A stretch of DNA of 42,716 nucleotides, taken from sequence record PZ386962.1. One strand, written 5' to 3'. Every line of letters starts with the position of its first letter. The first letter of the stretch is position 1. The notes beneath the pieces were generated by a model. That model saw only the letters and a list, made by a program, of their open reading frames with translations. It was not told the DNA's origin and did not search any database. Shown here in pieces: positions 1 through 42,716 of this stretch. The translations under genes and the position numbers were made by a program. This stretch comes from a phage.

Positions 1-1737
1 ATGGCAGGAATCGTTCGCGCTCACTACGAGAACAACTTCCCGCTGTTCCTGCATGACTACTTCGCATGGCTGGGCTTTGACCTCACTGAAATGCAGCTCG
101 ACATTGGCCGCTACATGGCCGACAGGACGCTCAAGAACAAGTGCGTCATGGCGCAGCGTGGTGAGGCTAAGTCCACCATCGGTATTGCCCGTGCTCTGTA
201 CGAATTTGTGCAGATGCCGAACGCCACTGTGCTGCTGGTATCCGGTTCGGATGACTATGCTGGCACGCTCTCGCACGCTATTGTGTCTGCCATCATGCAA
301 TGGGACAGACTCGAATGGCTGCGCCCGGAGACTCGCGCTGGCGCACGTACGTCATACACTGACGGCTTCGACGTGCATCACGCGTTCCGTATCCCTGACA
401 AACAGCCCTCTGTAAAAGCGGTCGGTATCTTCGGCCAGTTGCAGGGGAACCACGTATCGCTGTTGATTGCCGATGACGTGGAGACTACCAGTAACGGTAG
501 CTCTCCTGCCAACCGCGCCCGTATCAACACCCTGACCAAAGAGTTCGCGGCTATCGCCAACGATGGTGCAGAGATTCTGTACCTCGGCACCCCGCAGACT
601 CAGGACTCCATCTATAACACGCTCCCGCAGCGTGGCTTCGACGTTCGTATCTGGCCCGGTCGTTTCCCTACGCCGGAAGAAGAAGAACGGTACGGCGGCT
701 GTCTGGCCCCGTGGATTAAGCAGAAGATGGAAGGCCACCCGGAACTGCGTACTGGCTACGGTATCCTTGGGAACCGTGGTGCTCAGACTGACCCTCAGCG
801 TTATTCTGAGGAGAAGCAGCTCCAGAACGAACGAGATTATCAGCAGGCAGGCTTCCAGTTGCAGTTCATGCTGGATACGTCGCTGTCTGATGCGCTCAAA
901 CAAACGTTACATCTAAGAGACTTAATCTTCTTCCACGGCTCTACGCAGTCTGCGCCGGAGGTTCTGCATTGGTCGAACCACCCGCGCCATGCCGCCGAGC
1001 TGCCACTGGATTTCCCACTTGCTCGCGCTCAGCTATTCTTGGCTGCTGACTTCTCGGACACGTATGTACCATTCGAAAATACCTCGGCGTTTCTTGACCC
1101 TGCTGGTGGTGGGTCGGACGAATCAGTTATCATCGCCACAGCTTCTGTCGGCCCGTTTATCCACGTCATTGGTATGCACGTCTACCACGGCGGCCAGACG
1201 GAGGAGAACATCAAGGCAGCGGTAGAGTGGCTGTCTGAGGTCGGCGTTAAGCGGCTGGTCATTGAGGATAACATGGGCCACGGAACCGTGACCAACATGT
1301 ACCGAGGTGAGATTAAGCGGCAGAGCCTGACCATTGGCTGCGAAGGCGTGTACTCGTCCGGCCAGAAAGAGGTGCGTATCATCAACCGCCTCGGCCCAAT
1401 CATGCAGCGCCACCGTGTCGTTGTGCATTGGTGCGTTGTTGAAGAAGACCTGCGGCTGTGTCGGGGAATGAATAACGGTGGTCGCGAGTTCAGCCTGTTC
1501 TGGCAGCTCCAGAACCTGACCCAAGACCGTCAATCAATCCCTCACGATGACCGTATCGAAACCCTATCTGCTGCCGTGTACCTGCACGCTGAGGTGCTAC
1601 AGCAGGACGAACATGAAGAAGCTGCCAAGCGCGAGACTGCTGCTGCACGAGAGTTCCTTGCCAACCCCATGGGTTACGACGACTCGAAGTGGCGCAGCCA
1701 TAAGCCTGTGCGCGGCGTGCGACGGAGACTACGTTAA
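1..1737 (+). CDS. terminase large subunit (T7 gp19-like); N-terminus probably continues from window end
   Basis: 578-aa ORF placed directly after the terS-like ORF at the window end (circular reading); C-terminal RNase H-like nuclease-type segment (FLDPAGGGSDESVIIATASVG); size close to T7 gp19 when the 8 in-frame codons at 42693-42716 are added. Confidence 0.8.
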   Translation: MAGIVRAHYENNFPLFLHDYFAWLGFDLTEMQLDIGRYMADRTLKNKCVMAQRGEAKSTIGIARALYEFVQMPNATVLLVSGSDDYAGTLSHAIVSAIMQWDRLEWLRPETRAGARTSYTDGFDVHHAFRIPDKQPSVKAVGIFGQLQGNHVSLLIADDVETTSNGSSPANRARINTLTKEFAAIANDGAEILYLGTPQTQDSIYNTLPQRGFDVRIWPGRFPTPEEEERYGGCLAPWIKQKMEGHPELRTGYGILGNRGAQTDPQRYSEEKQLQNERDYQQAGFQLQFMLDTSLSDALKQTLHLRDLIFFHGSTQSAPEVLHWSNHPRHAAELPLDFPLARAQLFLAADFSDTYVPFENTSAFLDPAGGGSDESVIIATASVGPFIHVIGMHVYHGGQTEENIKAAVEWLSEVGVKRLVIEDNMGHGTVTNMYRGEIKRQSLTIGCEGVYSSGQKEVRIINRLGPIMQRHRVVVHWCVVEEDLRLCRGMNNGGREFSLFWQLQNLTQDRQSIPHDDRIETLSAAVYLHAEVLQQDEHEEAAKRETAAAREFLANPMGYDDSKWRSHKPVRGVRRRLR

Positions 1738-23155: not shown

Positions 23156-25588
23156 GTGGACTTACTTGCTGAGCAGATTCGACTTGAAGAAGAAGCACGA
23201 GCCAGACACCGCGAGGGCTGGCTGGACAATATCAAAGAAGCCATGGCTAGTGGCCGGGCCGGGTCGGTGCCGTTGCTCCAGCGTATGATGGTAGAGGCGT
23301 ATCCTCTTGTCGAAGCTGCGATGCAAGAAACCCTGAACGAAACGACCCGTGGGTACGGTGCGCAGTACCGGACGTACATGCGTGAGATTGGCACCAAGGC
23401 GTGTGCCTCTCTTGCACTGAGCATGGCGGTGTCCGGTGCTGCGTCGGAGCAGGCGGTGCTGAGTCTGCTTAAGAGTATGGGTAAAGCGCTGATGGCTGAG
23501 GTGGTGTATCTCCGGGCGAAGCAGACCGGGCCACAGCAGGCAGCGTACATGGAGCGCGTGAAGCAGGACGTTAAGAAGTCCCGGTCGAAGTCAGCCAACC
23601 ACGTCTACAACAAAGCGCGTGCGTCGGCGGCGAACGTTGGGGTCGAGATTGATGTGCTGCCGCAGCGTGCTCTGATTACCATTGGCAAGCTGATGATGAA
23701 ATGCGTGGAGCCAACTGGGTTGGTGGCTACGATTCGCGTCGGCGGCAACCAACGTCAGCGCGGTACGGCACACTTCGCACTGCATGAGGATGTGCTGGCT
23801 ACGATGAACGACTGGCTGGACATGCCGCGTGCTGATGGCATGTGCTGCCCACCGTTGATTATCCCACCGAAGCAGATTGCACCGAACGGTCGCAGCGGTA
23901 TGTGGCACTCGGATGGGCAGGCGGCGATGTACCGGGTAATGAGTCGCATGAACCACAAAGGGTATCGTGCATTGAACGTTGACCCGACCCCTGTTATAGA
24001 GCCGTGTATGATGCTCAGCAGCGTTCCGTACCGAATTAACCCAATGGTACTGGAGTTCCTGAGAACGAACCGTACAGGCGTTATGGGGCTGCCTGTGCCG
24101 CCTCGTGAGCCTAAGCTCCCATTCACCATCCCGGCTGGTGTCAGCTTCGCGCAGTACATCAGCAAGTTCCCACCAGAGATGCAGCAGCAGATGGATGCCG
24201 AGGCTCATGAGTACAAGGTTAAGACTCGCTTGTATTACAATGAGTTGCGTAAGTTCACGTCGCAGATGCTGGCGCTGAATGGTGCAGTCAAAGAGGCAGA
24301 GCGCTATGCGCATTATGACCGGGTATACCTCCCGACCTACGCTGATACACGGGGCCGAATTTATTATTCTTCGACCCTTAACCCTCAGTCCATCGACGCA
24401 GTGCGAGCGCTGCTCGAACTTGCTGAACCAGTGGCTCTCGGAAGTGAGGGGTTATTCTGGCTCAAGGTACATGTTGCGAATTGCTTCGGCTACGACGCGA
24501 CAGACTTCGAAGACCGGGCGGCGTGGACGGACAAGACACTCCCCCGACTACGTGAGGCGTGCCGTCTTCCAGAGGCATTTGATTCGTTCTGGTCAGAGGC
24601 CGATAGCCCTATCAGCGCGTGGGCTGCATCTGTTGAACTCATTCGCGCTATCGACTCAGGAAATCCTGCGGCTTATCCCTGCCGAGTGGTTACACAATGG
24701 GACGCTACCTGTTCAGGATTACAGCACCTCAGTGCGATGTTACGAGATGAGGTTGGAGGTGCTGCTGTCAATCTTATCGACAGCGTGGGAAGAAAAGCAG
24801 ACATATATCTCAAGACGGCAGCAGCGGCGATGCAGGCTCTTGAAGAAAGTGAGGCAGCAGCGCCGACGCAAATGGGTACGTGGCTTGTTAGCATCGGCAT
24901 CGTTCGGGCTATGGCCAAGAAGCCAGTGATGACCTACGTGTACGGGGCAACCCGGCATGGTATGGTTGATTACTACTGCCTGTATCTGCGTGAGAACCGG
25001 GTCAAGCTGCCGGACGGCAAGAGCCTGCTGGAGTGTGCGCAGTTCATCGCAGAGTTCATGTGGAACGCTATCCCTCGCGTTGTGCCGAAGGCGGCTGAGC
25101 TGATGGCATGGTTGCAGGCTATCGCAGTTGAGGCGGCAGCCAACGGCGAGTACGTGGAAATCATCGCACCGTCAGGGTTGCGGGTGGTTAACCTGTACCA
25201 AGCCAGTAAGGAGACGATGCTCAACAACATCAACCTCATGGGTATCCACAGCATTAAGCTGCGTGAGTATCTGGACAAGCCGGACAGCCGGAAGTGTGCT
25301 GCTGCGATTGCTCCGAATTTCGTACACGCTATGGATGCCAGCCACATGATGAAGGTGCTGTGGGAGATGTGGAACAACGGGGTGTACATGGTATCCATCC
25401 ATGACTCGTTCGGTGTTGCGGCGGCACATGCTGGTCTGCTGCATAAGGTCATTCGTGAAAAGTTCGTACAGATGTATGAGCAACATGACCCAATTCAACA
25501 GCTTGCGGTAAGATACAATGCTGTTCCACCTGAGCGGGGCAATCTGGACATCCAGCTTGTGAAACAATCAAGCAAGTTTTTCTGCTGA
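23156..25588 (+). CDS. single-subunit DNA-dependent RNA polymerase (T7 RNAP family)
   Basis: Motif A-like DATCSGLQHLSAML, motif B-like KKPVMTYVYGAT, motif C HDSFG; 810 aa; GTG start with AAGGAG RBS; sits directly upstream of the structural genes as in phiKMV-like phages. Confidence 0.9.
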   Translation: MDLLAEQIRLEEEARARHREGWLDNIKEAMASGRAGSVPLLQRMMVEAYPLVEAAMQETLNETTRGYGAQYRTYMREIGTKACASLALSMAVSGAASEQAVLSLLKSMGKALMAEVVYLRAKQTGPQQAAYMERVKQDVKKSRSKSANHVYNKARASAANVGVEIDVLPQRALITIGKLMMKCVEPTGLVATIRVGGNQRQRGTAHFALHEDVLATMNDWLDMPRADGMCCPPLIIPPKQIAPNGRSGMWHSDGQAAMYRVMSRMNHKGYRALNVDPTPVIEPCMMLSSVPYRINPMVLEFLRTNRTGVMGLPVPPREPKLPFTIPAGVSFAQYISKFPPEMQQQMDAEAHEYKVKTRLYYNELRKFTSQMLALNGAVKEAERYAHYDRVYLPTYADTRGRIYYSSTLNPQSIDAVRALLELAEPVALGSEGLFWLKVHVANCFGYDATDFEDRAAWTDKTLPRLREACRLPEAFDSFWSEADSPISAWAASVELIRAIDSGNPAAYPCRVVTQWDATCSGLQHLSAMLRDEVGGAAVNLIDSVGRKADIYLKTAAAAMQALEESEAAAPTQMGTWLVSIGIVRAMAKKPVMTYVYGATRHGMVDYYCLYLRENRVKLPDGKSLLECAQFIAEFMWNAIPRVVPKAAELMAWLQAIAVEAAANGEYVEIIAPSGLRVVNLYQASKETMLNNINLMGIHSIKLREYLDKPDSRKCAAAIAPNFVHAMDASHMMKVLWEMWNNGVYMVSIHDSFGVAAAHAGLLHKVIREKFVQMYEQHDPIQQLAVRYNAVPPERGNLDIQLVKQSSKFFC

Positions 25589-34202: not shown

Positions 34203-36899
34203 ATGGCTACTATGCGTGACCAGCGTGGCGCTAACCTTAATGCTGCGCAGCAGGGATTACCAAGTGTGCAGCAGGCGCAGACTCCGTTTAGTCTCGCAGG
34301 CCGCGATACTCGCATCGACACGTTTCCTACCGAGTCCATTCAACGCGTACTGAACATGGCCAGCGCACTTGCTGGCCGTGTCACTGAGCGTGTGAACGAG
34401 GAAGAATACCTCAAGGGGGCTAACGCCGCCGCGAGTGGCAAGGCTGTCGAGGATTTGGATTCGAACTGGCTTACCGCTCAGTTCCAGAAAGCTGGTTACA
34501 ACGACCAGTACAAACGAATGGAAATGGCGAAGGTCGCCTCAGACATCTCGGCTAACATGCCGCAGTATGCGAAGATGGCACCCGACGAGTTCTTGAAGGT
34601 GGTGGACGAGAAGACCACTGGCCTGTTCGAGAACACTGATGGTATGACGCTGAACGGGCGTAAGTCACTGCTGGAGAACCAGCTCACGTTCAGCAACACC
34701 CTTATCCGTACGCAGGCTGCCCAGCATGGTAAGTATCTGGTTGAGCAGCGTGCGGCGATGTACAACACGCAGGGTAACACTCTAGTTACTCTGGCGGCTC
34801 AGGCCAAGGCCACTGGCGATGGCGGCGCGTACGCTAACGCTACGGCAGCAACCATGGCATGGGCCAAGTCTATTCTGGCAGACGACAAGCTGCCACTGGA
34901 GACTCGCCGGACGCAGGTGACTTCCATGATGGGGCTGATGCTCCAGCAGGATTTGCGTACCCCGGTCGAGACTGCTGTGAACTCCGGGCTATTCAACGAG
35001 CTGCCTGCCGACGATTTGGCCAAGCTGCAAGGTCAGATTCGTGAATCCAAATCTCGTACTGAGGTTCAGGATAACATGGGTCTGCTGGCGCAGAAGGGTC
35101 AACTTGATGCGCGTCAGGCAGTATTCGGTGACGTTACGCCGGAACAGTACACGCAGACGCTCCAGCAGATGGTGGACAATAAGCTGATTAGCGCTGGTGG
35201 TTTCAGCTCTGCTATCGAGTCCTTCTACAAGGATTACGCCAAGCAAGCCAAGGCCAGCCAGCTCGGTCAGGCTTACGCCACCGGGAACCAGACGTACATG
35301 CTCCAGCAGGGCGCGAGTGAGCAGGATGGTGCTGACGCATTCATCAAGGCTCGCATGAAGCAACCGGGCGCGACGGCAAGTTCCGTGGCGTTCGACCTGC
35401 TGCAAGTGGGTGCGCAGACTGGCTTCCCTTCTGCGTACAAGTCTGCTGCCAAGTTGATTGAACCATCCCTGTCGAACTTCGGCACCGTGGATGAAATGAA
35501 CCCTGACGCTGCCCGTACCGTAACCGGGCTGATTGACCGTGTAACCGTGGCCGAGAATCAGGGTGACAAGACTGCATGGACTAAGCTCCTGTCCGGTCTG
35601 TCAGAAGAAAACCAAGAGAAGATGGTGTACATGCGCGAGCAGATTAAGGCTGGCCGCACCATCGACCAAGCTGGTCAGGGTTACATCAAGCAGCAGCAGG
35701 ACTACGCTGGCTTGACCCCGGCACAGAAATCTCAAATCCTCACGCAGCGTCAATCTGACGTTAACTCTGTGGTGAATGGGCTGGAGGCTCAGGGCTTCCT
35801 CTCTCGCACTTGGCAGGGTCTGGCTGGTCTGTTCTCAGATACTCAGCAGAACCTGTTCCAAGCACGCGTCGCATCTGGTGACATTACTGCCGCGCAGGAA
35901 ATGTCGGAGGTGTCTGCCGCGTACCGCGAGGAGCTGCAAGCTGTAGTCCTCAAGAACCCGAACGTGACGAAGGATGGTATGGAAGCACTCGCATCTGCGA
36001 AGCTGGCCAACCGTGTCCTGCGCGTCGGTGAAACCACATTCAGCCCCGGCTCTGTGCTTATCGCACCGAGAGGCCAAACTGTTCAGTCTATGCTCGGCTT
36101 GCCTGCTGACGTAGCCCCCGACCGTATCGGTCGCGCTATCGCCGCACTTGACCAGACCAAGGCACCAGAAGGCTTCGAGTCGTCCTACTCGTTTATGCCA
36201 GATGGCTCTCTGAACGTTCAGTTCTTCAACAAGCAAGGTGACGTTTCCCCGAACTCGGTACGCATTCTGCCGCAGCTCGTGCAGGAACGCATCCGTGAAG
36301 ACGACCGTGCAGCAGCCACTGCCAACAACGAAGTGTATGGCGACGGGAAACTCTTTGTTGATAAGACCAGTAACGTGGGTATCCGCGTGAATGGCGTTAA
36401 TACTGCGGGGGTAGACGAGCAGCGTATGCTTGTTGCCCGTGGCAAACTGATTGACTTCGAAGGTATCCGCAGCACCACCTACCGCGACAGCACTGGCGTA
36501 CAGACTAACGGTGTCGGTATCTCCGACCGTAGCCCGTACTTTGCCCAAGGCCAAGCGTCTGGTATGAAAGGCGGTACTGAGTGGTCGCCGCGAACTATCC
36601 ACGATACGTTCGTGCAACACACCAACATGGTAGCCCGGCAGATGCCCGGCACTGCTGCTGCACTGGGGTGGAGTCGTGATAACGATGCCCAGTTCCAGTT
36701 CATGATGCAGATGGGTTATCAGGCAGGTTCAAGCTGGTATCGTACCGATGGTGCGTACAGCAAACTGGCTGATGCAATCCGTGTTGGCGACCAAGAGAAA
36801 GCTGTGCAGGCTCTGGCTGCGACCCCGGCTTATAAGCTGTCGCAGGACGAGCGTAAGCAGTATTACGTCCAAACTCTACTCGCAGGTATGCAGGAATGA
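34203..36899 (+). CDS. internal virion (core) protein B (gp15-like)
   Basis: 898 aa, large mostly alpha-helical-looking protein between tail tube genes and tailspike. Confidence 0.65.
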   Translation: MATMRDQRGANLNAAQQGLPSVQQAQTPFSLAGRDTRIDTFPTESIQRVLNMASALAGRVTERVNEEEYLKGANAAASGKAVEDLDSNWLTAQFQKAGYNDQYKRMEMAKVASDISANMPQYAKMAPDEFLKVVDEKTTGLFENTDGMTLNGRKSLLENQLTFSNTLIRTQAAQHGKYLVEQRAAMYNTQGNTLVTLAAQAKATGDGGAYANATAATMAWAKSILADDKLPLETRRTQVTSMMGLMLQQDLRTPVETAVNSGLFNELPADDLAKLQGQIRESKSRTEVQDNMGLLAQKGQLDARQAVFGDVTPEQYTQTLQQMVDNKLISAGGFSSAIESFYKDYAKQAKASQLGQAYATGNQTYMLQQGASEQDGADAFIKARMKQPGATASSVAFDLLQVGAQTGFPSAYKSAAKLIEPSLSNFGTVDEMNPDAARTVTGLIDRVTVAENQGDKTAWTKLLSGLSEENQEKMVYMREQIKAGRTIDQAGQGYIKQQQDYAGLTPAQKSQILTQRQSDVNSVVNGLEAQGFLSRTWQGLAGLFSDTQQNLFQARVASGDITAAQEMSEVSAAYREELQAVVLKNPNVTKDGMEALASAKLANRVLRVGETTFSPGSVLIAPRGQTVQSMLGLPADVAPDRIGRAIAALDQTKAPEGFESSYSFMPDGSLNVQFFNKQGDVSPNSVRILPQLVQERIREDDRAAATANNEVYGDGKLFVDKTSNVGIRVNGVNTAGVDEQRMLVARGKLIDFEGIRSTTYRDSTGVQTNGVGISDRSPYFAQGQASGMKGGTEWSPRTIHDTFVQHTNMVARQMPGTAAALGWSRDNDAQFQFMMQMGYQAGSSWYRTDGAYSKLADAIRVGDQEKAVQALAATPAYKLSQDERKQYYVQTLLAGMQE

Positions 36900-39800
36900 T
36901 TATCACACAAGAATCGCTCGACAAGTTCATGGCTCCCAAGCAGGGGGCCAACGCTCCCTCGCTGGTTATTCCAGCTCCCGTAAAGACTGCTGACCTCAGC
37001 ACTCCACTGCAAGATGCCACTCGTCAGGGTGCCGTCGAGCAGTTCGACAAGATGCAGGAACTGGAAGCAACTCCGATGGCCACGGCGTTGAGTGCTTCTG
37101 TGAAGAACTGGGACACCACCCAGCTCTTTGATGCCGCGTTCAACAAGCCCACCTTCCAAGCTGACCCGGACTTCAAGCCCAACGAGGCATTGCAGAACGT
37201 ACAGTTCCCGGTGGGTGCAGATGACCGGACGTTCCTGTTCAAATCCAAATCCATGGACGAGTTCAACTGGCGTACCCAGCAGCTCCAAGAGATGCGAGAA
37301 CGTACCCAGTTGGCTCACACTGCGCCAGTGATGAACGCAGTGCTGCAATTCGCTGACCCGCTGTACCTTGCTACTGACCTGCTCTCGATGGGAGCAGGCA
37401 CTGCCCTGAAACTTGGTCGCCTTGGAACCGCTGCCGTAGGCGCGGCGTCCACTGCTACGCTGATGAACACCATCGGTAGCGAGGCTCGCCCAGTATCTCA
37501 GAACGAGATTATCTTTGCGGCTGCCCTGCACGGGGCGGCCACCACTGCATTCTATCGCCCCGCCGCTGCGCCAGCCCGTCGCCTTGATGAGCTGTCGCCA
37601 GAGGAATTTGCGGCTGAGATGCAGCGCCGTAACGGTATTGACCCGAACAACCCGCCGCAGTTTGACCCGAACAACGCCATGTCTCCGCTGGCAATGTCCC
37701 TCGGTGTCGGCCCTCGCGGTGCCACTGTAGTTGACGAAGTACCGGAATCCATTCGGGCTGCGGCTCAGCGTGGACTCGACCTCGCACGCCGTGGTGAGCA
37801 GACCAACCCTAAGCGTCCATTCCTTGAGTGGTCACTGTTCAAGTCGTTCAGTCAGCATTCTGAGGAATCCAGTGCGTTGGCCGGGCGACTGCTGGACGAC
37901 CCACTGAACCCGAACATGACCTCTGCTGCTGCAATCCAGCGCGAGACTCAGGCTCGCTTCGGTGTGCTGCTGAACCAGTATGAAGACACCCTGCGCCATG
38001 CCCTGACCACTGATGGCTGGAGTAACATCCGGCGCTTCCGTGACCCGGTTGGCTATCGCCGGGCGCAGCAGGAGTTCGAAGCTGCTGTTCGTCTTGAGCT
38101 GGACAAGCGCATGATTGACAACAACTTCCGTGGCGCTAACCCGAGTGTGGCCGCTGCCGCCGACCGACTGGGCGAATACTCTCGCGCCGTGGGCCGGGAG
38201 CTGGAACGCAAGGGGATGGTTGAGCCGGGCTTCGTGGAGAAGAACCCGTACTACTACCCTCGCCGGATGAACGTGACCAAGGTTGAGCAGGCTGAGCAGT
38301 TGCTCGGCAAGAAGCCATTCATGAAGCAGATGACGACTGCTGTGCAGCGCGGTATCGGTACTGACCGTCCGACTGCCAACGTCATTGCCCATGCTATGGT
38401 GGAGCGTGCCCGCCGCAAAGGTTACGGTATCGACAACTCCGGTACGATTATCAACAAGGAGGGCCGCGATGAGCTGCTCGAAATCATTGAGAACTCGAAA
38501 GGACTCGACGAGGCTGCCAAGGCCCGTGCTTCCGCACTCCTTCGTGAATCTGGCTCGGACGCTGGCCGACCGTCGATGCTTAAGAGCCGTATCAACATCG
38601 ACATGATGCACCAGCTCGGCCCTAACTTGCAGGTGCGTGACCTGTTCGATGACAGCATCACCAGTATGATGGACAGCTACAACCGCCGCATTACTGGGCG
38701 ACTGGCTCTGCATGAGGCTGGACTGGGTACTGACGCCGAACGCGCTGCTGCTCGTGAGGCTCTGGCCAAATCCATCAAGGATGGTACGGCTCGTCGTCAG
38801 GCGCTGGGGCAGTATGACAACATCATGGCTTATTACCAAGGTGCGCCAGTTGGTGAGGAAATGCCGCAGTTCATGCGTCAGCTCTCTGCACTGACTCAGG
38901 CTACTGGTCTGGCTGCATCTGGTCTGTGGCAGTTGGTGGAATACGGCACGATGATGCAACGTTTCGGGGCAGTCAATACGTTTCGCGCCATGATGCGTAC
39001 AATTCCCGAAGCACGCGCACTATTTAAGCAAATGAGGGTGTCTACTAAGGAAGGTCGTCAGTTGGCACTTGATGCCGAGGAAGCTCTGACTGCGGCGGTT
39101 GCGAGTGATATTCGTATGCGCCCAATCATGCAGCACTATGAAGATATGTTCTCTGCGGATAAGTCACCGTGGGTTATGCGTCTTGAGCACGCCCGTGATG
39201 CTACCATGTTCATCAACATGCAGAAATACATCCACTTCCACCAGACCCGTACCAACGCTGCGCTCGTGATGCAGACTCTGCGTAAGGCTGCCGAAGGTGA
39301 CGCCAAGGCTATTGCCGCGATGAAAACCTATGGTGCCAATGAGCAGCTTCTGAACGACATTCGCAAGCAGGTCGGGCAGCATGGCACCAAGCCAGACGCT
39401 TGGGACGAGGGCGTGTTCAACCGCTCCCGTATTGTCATGATGAATGCCATGGATGACGCCATTGTTCGCGCCCGTGTGGGTGAGCTGCCTGCGTTTGCAG
39501 AGTTCAGCACGCTCGGTAAGTTCCTGTTTACGTTCCGTCGATTCGTAGCGGCTACGCACAACAAGACACTGGTGGGTACGTGGAATCGTGAAGGTGCTCG
39601 CGGAATGGCTACGCTCATGGCGTATCAGTATCCGCTGGCGATGATGGCCACCGCAGCCAACAACGTGATTTCTGGCAAGGCTTTCTCCGACCCGGAAACC
39701 ATGGCACCAAATAAGCTGGCTGGGCAGGCACTGAACTATCTTGGTGCTATCGGCTTTGCCTCCGAGTTCACTGGTGTCCTGACCGGGCAGCAGCGTAGCT

Positions 39801-40006
39801 TCGGTGCGCCGGGCCTGTTGTTCCTCGACCGTGCCTACGGCGTGGCAGGTGCAGCTACCAATGCTGCTGGCGGTGTGTTGACTGGGGATGCTGACCAAGC
39901 CATCTCCGGTGCTCGCAAGGCGGCGGGTAACGTCATCCAAGCAATCCCACTCATCTCCATTGTGCCGGGCGTCCGAGCACTCAACGAAGCAGTTAAGGGT
40001 GAATAA
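36896..40006 (+). CDS. internal virion (core / ejectosome) protein C (gp16-like)
   Basis: 1036 aa, last large gene before tail fiber, ATG overlaps upstream stop. Confidence 0.65.
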   Translation: MIITQESLDKFMAPKQGANAPSLVIPAPVKTADLSTPLQDATRQGAVEQFDKMQELEATPMATALSASVKNWDTTQLFDAAFNKPTFQADPDFKPNEALQNVQFPVGADDRTFLFKSKSMDEFNWRTQQLQEMRERTQLAHTAPVMNAVLQFADPLYLATDLLSMGAGTALKLGRLGTAAVGAASTATLMNTIGSEARPVSQNEIIFAAALHGAATTAFYRPAAAPARRLDELSPEEFAAEMQRRNGIDPNNPPQFDPNNAMSPLAMSLGVGPRGATVVDEVPESIRAAAQRGLDLARRGEQTNPKRPFLEWSLFKSFSQHSEESSALAGRLLDDPLNPNMTSAAAIQRETQARFGVLLNQYEDTLRHALTTDGWSNIRRFRDPVGYRRAQQEFEAAVRLELDKRMIDNNFRGANPSVAAAADRLGEYSRAVGRELERKGMVEPGFVEKNPYYYPRRMNVTKVEQAEQLLGKKPFMKQMTTAVQRGIGTDRPTANVIAHAMVERARRKGYGIDNSGTIINKEGRDELLEIIENSKGLDEAAKARASALLRESGSDAGRPSMLKSRINIDMMHQLGPNLQVRDLFDDSITSMMDSYNRRITGRLALHEAGLGTDAERAAAREALAKSIKDGTARRQALGQYDNIMAYYQGAPVGEEMPQFMRQLSALTQATGLAASGLWQLVEYGTMMQRFGAVNTFRAMMRTIPEARALFKQMRVSTKEGRQLALDAEEALTAAVASDIRMRPIMQHYEDMFSADKSPWVMRLEHARDATMFINMQKYIHFHQTRTNAALVMQTLRKAAEGDAKAIAAMKTYGANEQLLNDIRKQVGQHGTKPDAWDEGVFNRSRIVMMNAMDDAIVRARVGELPAFAEFSTLGKFLFTFRRFVAATHNKTLVGTWNREGARGMATLMAYQYPLAMMATAANNVISGKAFSDPETMAPNKLAGQALNYLGAIGFASEFTGVLTGQQRSFGAPGLLFLDRAYGVAGAATNAAGGVLTGDADQAISGARKAAGNVIQAIPLISIVPGVRALNEAVKGE

Positions 40007-42378
40007 TGGCGAACAGCTATAATACTTACGTGGCGAACGGTTCACAGACCGCATTCCTCGTCACGTTCGAGCAGCGCGTGTTCACTGAGATTCAGGTGTA
40101 CCTCAACTCCGAACTCCAGACGAGCGGATACACCTACAACTCTGTGACCAAACAGATTGTCTTTGACACCGCCCCGCCAATCGGGGTGATTGTCCGACTC
40201 CAACGCTACACCTCCGATATTCTGCTTAACAAGTTCGGTCAGGACGCTGCCTTCACGGGCAGCAACCTCGACGAGAACTTCGAGCAGATTCTGTTTAAGG
40301 CTGAGGAAACTCAGGAGGCATGGCTCGCGCCGCTTGACCGCGCAGTCCGTGTCCCGAACTCCGAAGTCTCCATCAACGCATTACCGAACGTCGCTGGCCG
40401 CCGTAACAAGGCATTGGGCTTTGACAACGCTGGCCAGCCGTTCATGATTCCTCTGGTTGATATTCCTGACTCAGCTCTGGCCATTGCGCTGGCGATGAAT
40501 GACGGCGGTAAGTGGATTGGCACCCTTGGCGGTGGTACGTTCCTCGACCGTCAGGACACTGTGTGTCTGTCAGAGTTCACCAACAACACTGGCTATGCGT
40601 CCATCGCTGCCGCTGTGCAGGCATGTTTCGACTATGCCAAGGCAAACGGTAAGGTTGTGGATGCACGCGGCTGGGAAGGCACTGTGGACTCCACGGTGAC
40701 AATGGATGGTATTGAGGTCGTCGGCGGTACGTGGCACGGTAAGGCAGATATTCGACTGATTGACTCAACGTTCCGCAACTTCAAGGCATCCACTGTGCGT
40801 GTGGCATACTGGGGTGGCAAGGTTCGCATTGCTGACTATGAGTTCACCAGTGCGCCGAGCAACTCCAAAGTTACGTCAATCCTGTTCCAAGGCAACATCG
40901 CCGGGGGCAGCTACGTAATCGAGAACGGTATCCACCGTAACGGCAAGTTCGGTATTCTGCAACAGGGTACTGGTGAGGCTATCACCAACGGCATTATCCG
41001 CAACGTCGCTATGATGGACATGATGGGTGATGGCATTGAGATGAACGTAATCAACAAGCACTATGACGGTGGCCTGCTGATTGAGAACATCTACCTTGAG
41101 AATATCGACGGCACCAACGCACCTATTCCACTGTCCAACTGGGGCATCGGTATCGGTATTGCAGGTCAAGGCCCGTTTGGTTGGGATGCTGCTGAGACTC
41201 AGTACGCGAAGAACGTAACCGTGCGTAACGTCCATGCTCCGCGCGGTGTACGTCAGGTTGTCCACTTCGAAGTTACCCGCGACAGCGTGTGCGAGAACGT
41301 GGTCTGTAACCCTGACCTGTCCGTGTCCACTGGTACTGGCCTGTCTGCTGCTGGCGTAATCACGTACGGCTGCAAACGCATGACCATTGATGGCGTGGTT
41401 GGTGAGCCTATCAACACAGGTGCAACCTCCCCTAACGATATTCGTCTCGTTATGCTGGAGTGGGGTGCTAACCAAGCAGGTGCTGGCGGTACGCCGGGTG
41501 CTGCGTGTCCATCTTTTGACATGACCGTGCGCAACGTGCAGACCCGCACCGGGCGCTTCTATGCAGGTGTCGGCTCCGACGACGATAACACCAACACGTA
41601 CCACCTTGAAAACATTCACTGTTACAAGATGACGCTGTTCGGTGTGGCTACTCTGCTGAACATGACCAACGTTACTGGTGTCGTATTCGACGCAGTTGGT
41701 GATGACTCCAGCGGCGGTACTTCATCCAACGGTGTGTACCCGCGTAAGAAGACGTGCCTGAACATGGTGAACGTGAACTTCTACGGGCCGGGTATGACCG
41801 AGGGTGCGCTGTACAGTAAGGCTCGCTACTCTGACATTAGCACGCTGAACTCCAACGTGCGTGCCATCCCTTACTCTAACATCCAAGGTAACGTTGGCGC
41901 TATCCTGTCTCCAGTGAACCGCATCCTGACGCTGCCAAACAACTTGGCAACGCTGACAGGTGCTGAGTTCCCGACTGGTAAAGAGTTCCCGGAAGGTACT
42001 GTCCTGCTGAAAACTGATGGTTCTGGTGGTAACTTCATCGTCACCCAGTTTGGTGCCTACATCCCTAATGATGGCAACAACTTTAAGGTGCGTGCTGCTG
42101 CTGCTGGCCAGACGTATCTGGAGCAGAACCTGACTCCGGCTGGTACTCAGGCATCCACCTCGTGGCTGTACCATAAACCAATCTCTGCTGGCACCCGGTT
42201 GAACATCCCCGGCGCTGGGCCGAGTGGCGGTACACTGACCGTGACGGTGGTGCGTGCTCCTTATCAGGTGGACAACAACATCGGGAACCCGGTACGCATC
42301 GACATCACCCCGGCCATTGTGACGGCTATCCCTGCTGGGACTCAGCTCGCCGCAACTTATCCGGTGGCTTACATCTAA
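40006..42378 (+). CDS. tail fiber / tailspike protein with probable beta-helix enzymatic domain
   Basis: N-terminal segment resembles the T7 gp17-type tail attachment domain in pattern and placement (MANSYNTYVANGSQTAFLVTFEQ...); central region has repeated NVxVRNV-like strands typical of right-handed parallel beta-helix depolymerases. Confidence 0.7.
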   Translation: MANSYNTYVANGSQTAFLVTFEQRVFTEIQVYLNSELQTSGYTYNSVTKQIVFDTAPPIGVIVRLQRYTSDILLNKFGQDAAFTGSNLDENFEQILFKAEETQEAWLAPLDRAVRVPNSEVSINALPNVAGRRNKALGFDNAGQPFMIPLVDIPDSALAIALAMNDGGKWIGTLGGGTFLDRQDTVCLSEFTNNTGYASIAAAVQACFDYAKANGKVVDARGWEGTVDSTVTMDGIEVVGGTWHGKADIRLIDSTFRNFKASTVRVAYWGGKVRIADYEFTSAPSNSKVTSILFQGNIAGGSYVIENGIHRNGKFGILQQGTGEAITNGIIRNVAMMDMMGDGIEMNVINKHYDGGLLIENIYLENIDGTNAPIPLSNWGIGIGIAGQGPFGWDAAETQYAKNVTVRNVHAPRGVRQVVHFEVTRDSVCENVVCNPDLSVSTGTGLSAAGVITYGCKRMTIDGVVGEPINTGATSPNDIRLVMLEWGANQAGAGGTPGAACPSFDMTVRNVQTRTGRFYAGVGSDDDNTNTYHLENIHCYKMTLFGVATLLNMTNVTGVVFDAVGDDSSGGTSSNGVYPRKKTCLNMVNVNFYGPGMTEGALYSKARYSDISTLNSNVRAIPYSNIQGNVGAILSPVNRILTLPNNLATLTGAEFPTGKEFPEGTVLLKTDGSGGNFIVTQFGAYIPNDGNNFKVRAAAAGQTYLEQNLTPAGTQASTSWLYHKPISAGTRLNIPGAGPSGGTLTVTVVRAPYQVDNNIGNPVRIDITPAIVTAIPAGTQLAATYPVAYI

Positions 42379-42387
42379 GGAGAAACC

Positions 42388-42693
42388 ATGGCATCCGTGA
42401 ACAAGCAGCTCGACGGGCTGCACCGGATGCTGGTGGAGTATCTGTCCGACCGCTTGGCTGACGCTCGTAGGAAAGATGAACATGGTAACATCATCGAACC
42501 TATGGCGGCGGCTGAGCTGTCCGTACTTCGCCAGTTCCTGAAAGACAACGGTATTCAGGCTGATAAAGACCACGCAGATGACCTGCTGGCGCTGCAAGAG
42601 CAACTGAATAACGAAAAGACCGAGGCAGGTCGTAAGGATATTATGACCGCTGCCATTAACTCAATCGCAGAAGATAGCGGGATGATGCACTAA
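42388..42693 (+). CDS. terminase small subunit (T7 gp18-like)
   Basis: 101-aa helical protein directly upstream of terL when the window is read circularly; AAGGAGA RBS. Confidence 0.6.
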   Translation: MASVNKQLDGLHRMLVEYLSDRLADARRKDEHGNIIEPMAAAELSVLRQFLKDNGIQADKDHADDLLALQEQLNNEKTEAGRKDIMTAAINSIAEDSGMMH

Positions 42694-42716
42694 TGGATTT
42701 ACAACGCCGCATGGTG

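Follow-up and report, generated by a model that had tools for sequence, protein, structure and literature searches.

Described colanic acid-degrading phage proteins

Phage proteins that attack colanic acid have been described more than once. The recombinant enzyme of phage NST1 hydrolysed colanic acid to its repeat units, which took the polymer from 8.71 MDa down to 107 kDa (PMC9143390). On mucoid E. coli, phage J8-65 formed halos that expanded, and it reduced high-molecular-weight colanic acid (PMC4179555). A further case is gp150 of the myovirus Phi92, one of several spikes of that phage, whose crystal structure is available (PDB 6E0V/6E0W) and for which hydrolysis of the glucose–fucose linkage of colanic acid is reported in PMC13450770, citing Xu et al. 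2025. Tailspike colanidases are also encoded by Bonnellviruses, phiKMV/T7-like podophages of E. coli and related Enterobacteriaceae.

The protein considered here, encoded near the end of a 42,716-nucleotide stretch of phage DNA (the window), is very probably a tailspike of the latter kind, that is, the single Bonnellvirus tailspike, in which a gp17-type adaptor carries a β-helix glycoside hydrolase cleaving colanic acid. As such, it is an already described, ordinary protein, and nothing about it challenges current understanding. Others have shown hydrolysis of colanic acid and halo formation, and have solved a crystal structure, on relatives of this protein, while the window protein itself is known from its sequence, its domain homologies and its predicted fold.

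The tailspike gene and its genome context

The window is a Bonnellvirus genome, complete and circularly permuted, which shares about 97% identity with phage altidsur (MN850568), a value given for the first 25 kb. Its gene order is that of altidsur—portal, scaffold, capsid, tail tube A/B, internal virion proteins, tailspike and TerS/TerL—and a phage RNA polymerase gene lies at 23156..25588. The genes around the tailspike are as follows.

36896..40006, + strand: upstream neighbour, large internal virion protein (gp16-like, 1036 aa), from the ORF and the altidsur and LF82-23 annotations (internal head/virion protein)
40006..42378, + strand: complete tailspike colanidase gene, 790 aa plus stop codon, from the ORF, the identity to altidsur and NST1, and PHROG 6117
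42388..42693, + strand: downstream neighbour, small terminase subunit TerS (101 aa), from the ORF and the altidsur annotation
42693..42716 plus 1..1737, + strand: TerL, spanning the window ends, from the altidsur annotation; the joined 1761-nt ORF is free of stops

The tailspike gene thus sits directly 3′ of a gp16-like internal virion protein gene in an Autographiviridae genome, in the same position between internal virion proteins and TerS/TerL as the tailspike colanidases of altidsur, aldrigsur and J8-65. The preliminary description had delimited this gene correctly: the ORF listing of the window holds a single ORF with exactly these ends, starting with ATG and encoding 790 aa, and all of the short motifs then quoted are present in its product (TVRNV at aa 405 and aa 507, VCENVVCN at aa 428 and NMTNVTGVVFDAV at aa 552). 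The start codon shares one base with the stop codon of the upstream gene (TAATG), and AAGGGTGA forms a Shine-Dalgarno-like stretch immediately 5′ of it. PHROG 6117 matches the protein with E=1e-229, spanning aa 91-790. Both this match and the one to PDB 6E0V (E=5e-64) lie well outside what chance would give. Of the codons that differ from the NST1 gene (88% nt identity), 205 do so synonymously and 43 non-synonymously, and the tailspike is a real gene on which purifying selection acts. A second fibre or spike gene was not found across the complete genome, and the tailspike is the predicted sole receptor-binding protein of the phage.

Domain organisation

The protein can be divided into an adaptor, a neck, an enzymatic body with a highly conserved core, and a C-terminal domain.

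40006..40326, + strand: T7 gp17-type N-terminal tail-attachment (adaptor) domain, aa 1-107, from Pfam PF03906, profile search, hhalign and tblastn
40327..40530, + strand: linker or neck between adaptor and enzyme, aa 108-175, from the onset of homology, a drop in identity and low pLDDT (<50)
40531..41967, + strand: right-handed parallel β-helix, the enzymatic body, aa 176-654
40951..41271, + strand: most conserved core within the body, putative active-site region, aa 316-422, from homologue alignments
41968..42375, + strand: C-terminal domain, aa 655-790, opening with the conserved FPTGKEF motif and aligned by HMMER with 6E0V up to the last residue

A T7-type particle-attachment domain of roughly 130 aa had been proposed for the N-terminus. 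The homology is real, yet weaker than this implied, and the conserved part covers aa 2-107. When aa 1-170 were compared with the N-terminus of T7 gp17 by pairwise BLASTP, nothing significant was returned (E=7.4), so that membership of the family rests on profile methods. Measured against the Pfam gathering threshold of 25.2 bits, PF03906 scored just under the cut-off with the whole 790-aa protein (24.2 bits, match at aa 2-104) and over it when residues 1-160 were scanned alone (27.8 bits). It was matched by 8/8 aligned homologous N-termini, with a best E-value of 7e-29. An adaptor profile recovered T7 gp17 (7boz) with E=1.7e-14 and the podophage tail-structure fibres 5js4, 8vbx, 8es4 and 8dsp with E from 3e-28 to 2e-15; hhalign of the adaptor against T7 gp17 gave 97.4%, and tblastn with the adaptor matched tail fibres of many Autographiviridae. 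In T7, the gp17 gene likewise follows directly on that of a gp16-like internal virion protein, and the two proteins are homologous over their first ~107 residues. Past the adaptor the two differ, gp17 continuing into a coiled-coil shaft and a tip domain and the window protein into an enzymatic β-helix spike.

The body was modelled with AlphaFold2 (monomer, 24-sequence alignment), which predicted a β-helix with confidence, the N-terminal 176 residues of the model being unreliable (pLDDT <50). The predicted right-handed parallel β-helix can be superposed on the solved colanidase 6E0V, and by sequence the protein matches this gp150 structure with E=5e-64 over aa 162-790. A Pfam scan of the whole protein gave no match for the body; the Pfam set used appears to lack PF27800, a family that homologues of the tailspike carry in precomputed annotations. 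The β-helix depolymerase body read from short repeated strand motifs in the preliminary description is hence borne out, as structure prediction and comparison to known depolymerase tailspikes, the two computational checks it had proposed, yielded a β-helix fold and matches to all of NST1, altidsur and gp150. At the other end, the C-terminal domain can be aligned with the Ig-like domain at the C-terminus of gp150, where Pfam PF20745 (TSP_Ig-like) matches; no Pfam match was obtained in the tailspike C-terminal domain, and a Pfam scan at E<=1 found neither an intramolecular (auto-cleaving) chaperone nor a peptidase domain at the C-terminus.

The most conserved core contains the motifs ILQQ, GDGIEMNV, NWGIGIGIAG and RQVVHFE, and all motifs of the colanidase signature (ILQQ, GD[GA]IE.NV, NWGIG.G.AG and RQ..H.E) are found in the tailspike. 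Three carboxylates within it (D342, E345 and E422) do not vary among 24 homologues, nor when Phi92 gp150 and E. coli WcaM are added to the alignment, and by this conservation they probably form the acid/base catalytic centre.

Colanic acid as the substrate

The closest characterised relative is the colanic acid-degrading protein of NST1 (HM214492 / ADI49571; Firozi et al. 2010), deposited as a gene alone, to which the tailspike is 95% identical in amino acid sequence over all 790 residues, free of gaps. The two are of equal length and colinear, N-terminal adaptor included, and differ by 43 amino-acid substitutions scattered along the protein. Identity to the altidsur protein annotated as ‘tailspike colanidase’ is higher still, at about 98-99.5% aa. 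Bonnellvirus-type records, 17 in number and mostly annotated as colanidase, are 80-97% identical to the gene at the nucleotide level, and the tailspike gene of J8-65 (NC_025445) is 80% identical to it. Phi92 gp150 is more distant (about 27-31% identical) and has a different N-terminal attachment region without a PF03906 match. Homology to the characterised colanic acid hydrolases NST1 and gp150 is full-length over the enzyme.

Since the genome is that of a Bonnellvirus and the tailspike its sole predicted receptor-binding protein, the predicted substrate is colanic acid and not a Klebsiella K-capsule or LPS. The depolymerase activity envisaged in the preliminary description is upheld by the homology to colanidases (95% to NST1), while the capsule or LPS then named as its substrate is not.

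Bonnellvirus-type alleles are at least 87% identical up to about aa 210 and 40-60% thereafter, and homology to colanidases with other N-termini begins at about aa 150-180, which puts the module-exchange junction in the neck or just beyond it, at about aa 150-210. On a smaller scale, 40 of the 82 nucleotide differences from the altidsur gene fall within the first 200 nt, in the adaptor domain; there, glasur and forsur are nearer to the window (95.7%, against 93.3% aa for altidsur). These adaptor-region differences suggest a small recombination patch.

Host range and a related polysaccharide

A capsulated host such as Klebsiella had been suggested for this phage. This suggestion finds no support because E. 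coli K-12, Enterobacter, Kosakonia and Cronobacter were the isolation hosts of the close relatives. Bodies homologous to this one in Klebsiella phages share about 29% identity with it. None of 19 near-identical DNA matches (0/19) comes from a Klebsiella phage; a Klebsiella host was rejected, and the close Klebsiella-phage relatives that would mark a Klebsiella capsule depolymerase were not found.

A subtler reading retains the colanidase fold and lets the enzyme act on another colanic acid-like polysaccharide, be it the K108 capsule of Klebsiella or an exopolysaccharide of Enterobacter or Kosakonia, with a host other than E. coli. Phages of Klebsiella, Cronobacter, Enterobacter, Kosakonia and Salmonella do carry homologous bodies, the records at 80-83% nt identity have Enterobacter, Cronobacter and Kosakonia hosts, and a ‘colanidase-like’ class of Klebsiella depolymerases exists, the K108 capsule being similar to colanic acid (PMC13385381). 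We nonetheless regard this reading as highly improbable: the tailspike is 95% identical to an enzyme proven on E. coli colanic acid and 98-99.5% identical to that of altidsur, a phage isolated on E. coli K-12, the Klebsiella homologues reach only ~29%, and the spread of hosts is already explained because colanic acid is common to many Enterobacteriaceae. One feature of the relatives counts against the main reading: as their isolation host is the non-mucoid E. coli K-12 MG1655, infection may not strictly depend on abundant colanic acid.

Hydrolase rather than lyase or binding protein

Colanic acid has a backbone of glucose-fucose-fucose, and its uronic acid is located in the side chain. This arrangement bears on the proposal that the tailspike is a polysaccharide lyase acting by β-elimination, like many β-helix capsule depolymerases, instead of a hydrolase. 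The top fold neighbours do include lyases and epimerases (AlgE4, K1 lyase, K5 lyase and PL6 alginate lyases), and glucuronic acid is part of colanic acid, just not of the backbone. Published work describes the NST1 enzyme as a hydrolase whose product is intact repeat units, and gp150 is reported to hydrolyse the Glc-Fuc bond. Moreover, the invariant carboxylates D342, E345 and E422 appear to resemble those of the P22, Sf6 and HK620 endoglycosidases, and the invariant residues do not seem to match the Lys/Arg plus Ca2+ sites typical of lyases. On the combined strength of the backbone, the hydrolase reports for gp150 and NST1 and the carboxylates, lyase chemistry was rejected, and we give it a very slim chance.

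E. coli K-12 makes no O-antigen. In a third alternative, the tailspike would only bind, or would be specific for O-antigen/LPS, like those of P22, HK620 and Sf6, and colanic acid would play no part in infection. Its probability is practically negligible. Foldseek does rank the O-antigen tailspikes of HK620, Sf6, P22 and CBA120 after 6E0V, and the relatives plate on non-mucoid K-12. However, that very host lacks the O-antigen, the likeness is confined to the fold (8-14% identity, E 1e-7 or weaker; 8-11% identity for the O-antigen endoglycosidase tailspikes of P22, Sf6 and HK620), and a PDB search gave no sequence match to the latter three. This alternative and a non-enzymatic fibre are also contradicted by J8-65, which measurably reduces colanic acid and forms halos, and by putative catalytic motifs that are invariant across homologues.

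Proposed mode of action

For the colanic acid hydrolase favoured here, the following course of events can be envisaged. The N-terminal ~107 residues would dock the spike, presumably a homotrimer, onto the tail, and the β-helix hydrolase would bind colanic acid (M-antigen slime) and cut its backbone into repeat-unit oligosaccharides, with D342, E345 and E422 in the best-conserved rungs acting as the putative acid/base centre. The virion could then bore its way through the exopolysaccharide as far as the outer membrane, and the enzyme, whether free or borne on the virion, would give rise to halos on mucoid lawns.

A host relative of the catalytic core

The catalytic core of the colanidase is clearly homologous to a host protein, WcaM (b2043), encoded by the last gene of the colanic acid cluster. 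WcaM is 32% identical to the tailspike over about 250 aa (E=2e-18) and has the catalytic-core motifs in common with it; hhalign of WcaM against the colanidase gave 99.4%, its single PDB sequence match is gp150 (E=6e-24), and it matches PHROG 6117 with E=7e-52. In contrast to the spike, this 464-aa protein has neither a virion adaptor nor the C-terminal domain and begins with an SRRTFL twin-arginine motif (only a weak match to Pfam TAT_signal). Another host protein, WceF of Pantoea stewartii, is also encoded in an EPS cluster and has been proven to be a glycosidase resembling tailspikes (PMC7949094).

We tentatively entertain, at somewhat less than even chances, that the phage colanidases and WcaM make up one enzyme family with a shared active site (D342/E345/E422; GD.IE.NV / NWGIGIG / RQ..H.E). 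If so, WcaM would be the cell's own colanic acid glycosidase, serving chain-length control or release as WceF does for stewartan, and a module would have been exchanged between phage spikes and a host gene. No published link between WcaM and phage colanidases was found in the literature, which was covered incompletely.

Implications

Recognising a known colanidase as the receptor-binding protein fixes the likely primary receptor of this phage, colanic acid, and with it the likely hosts, namely E. coli and other colanic acid-producing Enterobacteriaceae. As to applications, the title of the 2010 paper by Firozi et al. reportedly refers to freeing plasmid preparations of colanic acid. Colanidases are also applied in colanic acid production (PMC9143390), and colanidase strips mucoid, phage-resistant E. 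coli, thereby opening access to other phages, with synergy seen with T7 (PMC4179555). Finally, the clear homology to WcaM points to a function, one that can be tested, for an E. coli gene that has long lacked an assignment.

The tailspike gene and its genome

The tailspike gene is borne out as a single ORF at exactly the position previously proposed, its start codon sharing one base with the stop codon of an upstream 1036-aa gene (TAATG) and being preceded by the Shine-Dalgarno-like AAGGGTGA.

Main features of the window
40006..42378, + strand: tailspike ORF, single, ATG start, 790 aa
42693..42716 joined to 1..1737: TerL, 1761-nt ORF without interruption across the window ends
Tailspike aa 1-107: conserved adaptor
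Tailspike aa 108-175: poorly conserved neck

All three motifs quoted in the preliminary description are found as well, namely TVRNV (aa 405 and 507), VCENVVCN (aa 428) and NMTNVTGVVFDAV (aa 552). As TerL reads through the joined ends, the window represents a whole phage genome in circularly permuted form; it belongs to the genus Bonnellvirus and shares about 97% identity with Escherichia phage altidsur. Over its first 25 kb, identity reaches 96.8% with altidsur (Autographiviridae, genus Bonnellvirus; isolation host E. coli K-12 MG1655) and 96.2% with aldrigsur, and the gene order is that of altidsur: RNA polymerase, portal, scaffold, capsid, tail tube A/B, three internal virion proteins, tailspike and TerS. 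Since no second fibre or spike gene is present in the window, the tailspike is its sole receptor-binding protein.

The altidsur record (MN850568) appears, from coordinates only, to be cut inside the gene of an 898-aa internal virion protein, which is intact in the window (34203-36899) and annotated in altidsur merely as a C-terminal fragment (24..296). At 39797-42197, the same record carries two minus-strand 'hypothetical' CDSs where this plus-strand gene would be expected.

A colanidase of known family

The protein is already known: GenBank records annotate it, biochemical characterisation exists at 95% identity, and a structure has been solved at the family level. At the DNA level, the gene has 17 full-length matches (80-97% identity), the majority of them labelled 'tailspike colanidase' or 'colanic acid degradation'. 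The protein shares 98% identity with the altidsur spike and aligns without gaps over all 790 residues with the colanic-acid-degrading protein of phage NST1 (HM214492; 95% identity). Codons that differ between the window and NST1 genes comprise 205 synonymous and 43 non-synonymous changes, and purifying selection acts on the gene. Residues 91-790 are matched by PHROG 6117 ('colanic acid degradation'; E=1e-229), and the PDB sequence match of the body (aa 162-790; E=5e-64) is Phi92 gp150, entered there under the name 'colanidase tailspike' (6E0V/6E0W). PHROG 6117 is placed in the category 'moron, auxiliary metabolic gene and host takeover', despite the family being a structural tailspike.

The NST1 enzyme, expressed from HM214492 and purified, hydrolyses colanic acid to repeat units, which takes the mean mass of 8.71 MDa down to about 107 kDa (PMC9143390). 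J8-65, the Bonnellvirus type species, has the same spike; it forms expanding halos on mucoid E. coli, lowers colanic acid of high molecular weight and aids T7 in gaining access to its receptor (PMC4179555). Olsen et al. (PMC7552041) have described nine bonnellviruses from Denmark with their 'tailspike colanidase', and Phi92 gp150 reportedly hydrolyses the glucose-fucose linkage of colanic acid (Xu et al. 2025, as cited in PMC13450770). The capsule- or LPS-degrading activity proposed earlier stands as that of a polysaccharide-degrading enzyme, and its predicted substrate is narrowed to colanic acid by the 95% identity to the NST1 enzyme.

An AlphaFold2 model built with a 24-sequence alignment is of high confidence between about aa 190 and 560, where the strands form a regular pattern, and of moderate confidence in the C-terminal part; aa 1-176 are unusable. 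Foldseek against the PDB places 6e0v_A on top (E=1.2e-36), followed by the HK620, Sf6, CBA120, Det7 and P22 tailspikes, AlgE4 and GH87, so that the modelled fold is the anticipated beta-helix rather than a different one.

Among 24 aligned homologues, the invariant non-glycine residues include D342, E345 and E422, which lie within the motifs ILQQ, GDGIEMNV, NWGIGIGIAG and RQVVHFE, and the three stay invariant when gp150 is added. The endoglycosidases of P22, Sf6 and HK620 have carboxylate pairs; by analogy, D342, E345 and E422 probably serve as the acid/base centre of a glycoside hydrolase. A lyase mechanism is unlikely, as the colanic acid backbone contains no uronic acid and the characterised relatives are hydrolases.

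The N-terminal adaptor

Over the whole protein, the T7 tail fibre N-terminal domain (PF03906) scores 24.2 bits at aa 2-104, slightly below its cut-off of 25.2 bits, and pairwise BLASTP finds no match to the T7 gp17 N-terminus. Residues 1-160 alone score 27.8 bits. By tblastn, the same domain also opens the tail fibres of LIMEzero, LIMElight, P-SSP7 ('T7-like tail fiber'), podophages of Pelagibacter and Synechococcus, Acibel007 and other phages. A profile built from eight homologous N-termini matches T7 gp17 from solved tail complexes (7boz; E=1.7e-14) as well as phiAB6, gp47 (8vbx), HRP29 gp44 (8es4) and other docked fibres (E=3e-28 to 2e-15), and hhalign aligns it with T7 gp17 aa 1-170 at 97.4% probability. 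Together, the scan of aa 1-160, tblastn, the profile and hhalign establish, at the sequence level, that the N-terminus belongs to the T7 gp17-type PF03906 family. The T7-type adaptor put forward earlier is therefore upheld as a domain, its conserved part spanning aa 1-107 rather than about 130 aa, and the general architecture of adaptor plus beta-helix depolymerase body is correct, given the PF03906-type N-terminus and the fold match to 6E0V.

Host

The nearest relatives derive from E. coli K-12 MG1655, E. coli LF82, Enterobacter, Kosakonia cowanii and Cronobacter; none of them is a Klebsiella-derived phage, and Klebsiella-phage homologues of the body share about 29% identity. Klebsiella phages do have a 'colanidase-like' class of depolymerases, and capsule K108 is similar to colanic acid (PMC13385381), which is a distant parallel and no evidence on the window phage. 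Judging from the nearest relatives, the likely hosts are E. coli and related Enterobacteriaceae rather than Klebsiella, as had been considered.

A modular and variable locus

The colanidase body is found in 255 phage records, its carriers including Bonnellvirus, Phapecoctavirus, Justusliebigvirus (phi92), 121Q-like jumbo phages, Skarprettervirus and Sortsnevirus as well as Salmonella, Cronobacter, Enterobacter and Klebsiella phages. In metagenomic homologues (P0008-P0021), it is fused to PF09008 (P22 head-binding) or to PF18668 with or without PF26208. Sliding identity locates the junction of exchange near aa 150-210. Such an adaptor-plus-enzyme mosaic is standard for tailspikes, and the locus is the variable host-range cassette of the genus Bonnellvirus.

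At least three unrelated virion adaptors occur on the same body: T7-type PF03906 (window), PF09008, and PF18668 with or without PF26208, the last belonging to large myoviruses. Phages with about 90% identical backbones carry different spikes at this locus; other alleles (P0005-P0007) retain at least 87% identity through the adaptor to about aa 210 and 40-60% beyond. Even within the adaptor, the spike of Escherichia phage HHU8 has an identity of only 41%.

L006 2995-5325: 'tail fiber' of Escherichia phage HHU8

Within the adaptor, the first 200 nt (window 40006-40205) hold 40 of the 82 nucleotide differences from the altidsur gene, and the protein of this stretch is nearer to glasur and forsur (95.7% aa) than to altidsur (93.3% aa); over the body, identity to altidsur rises to 99.5%. 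Such a pattern suggests a small patch of recombination inside the adaptor.

Likeness to host WcaM

To our knowledge, WcaM, encoded by the gene that ends the host's colanic-acid cluster, is without an assigned role.

L004 6503-7897: wcaM of E. coli K-12 (b2043)

An NCBIfam scan unexpectedly matched tailspike aa 304-464 (window 40915-41397) to WcaM (E=2e-19, far below the equivalog cut-off). BLASTP aligns about 250 aa with E. coli K-12 WcaM at 32% identity (E=2e-18), and hhalign gives 99.4% probability over 275 columns (E=9e-22). Conversely, gp150 is the sole PDB sequence match of WcaM (E=6e-24), and PHROG 6117 matches its aa 86-459 (E=7e-52). Like the tailspike, WcaM keeps D342, E345 and E422 together with all four motifs. 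In sequence, homology between the colanidase catalytic core and WcaM is clear, and the N-terminus of WcaM bears an SRRTFL twin-arginine motif. In our literature search, which was not exhaustive, no paper was found tying WcaM to colanidases or hydrolase activity. A precedent exists in Pantoea WceF, a Tat-exported, tailspike-like glycosidase of the stewartan cluster (PMC7949094). This analogy and the shared core suggest that WcaM may serve the cell as its own glycosidase for colanic acid, the part that WceF plays for stewartan.
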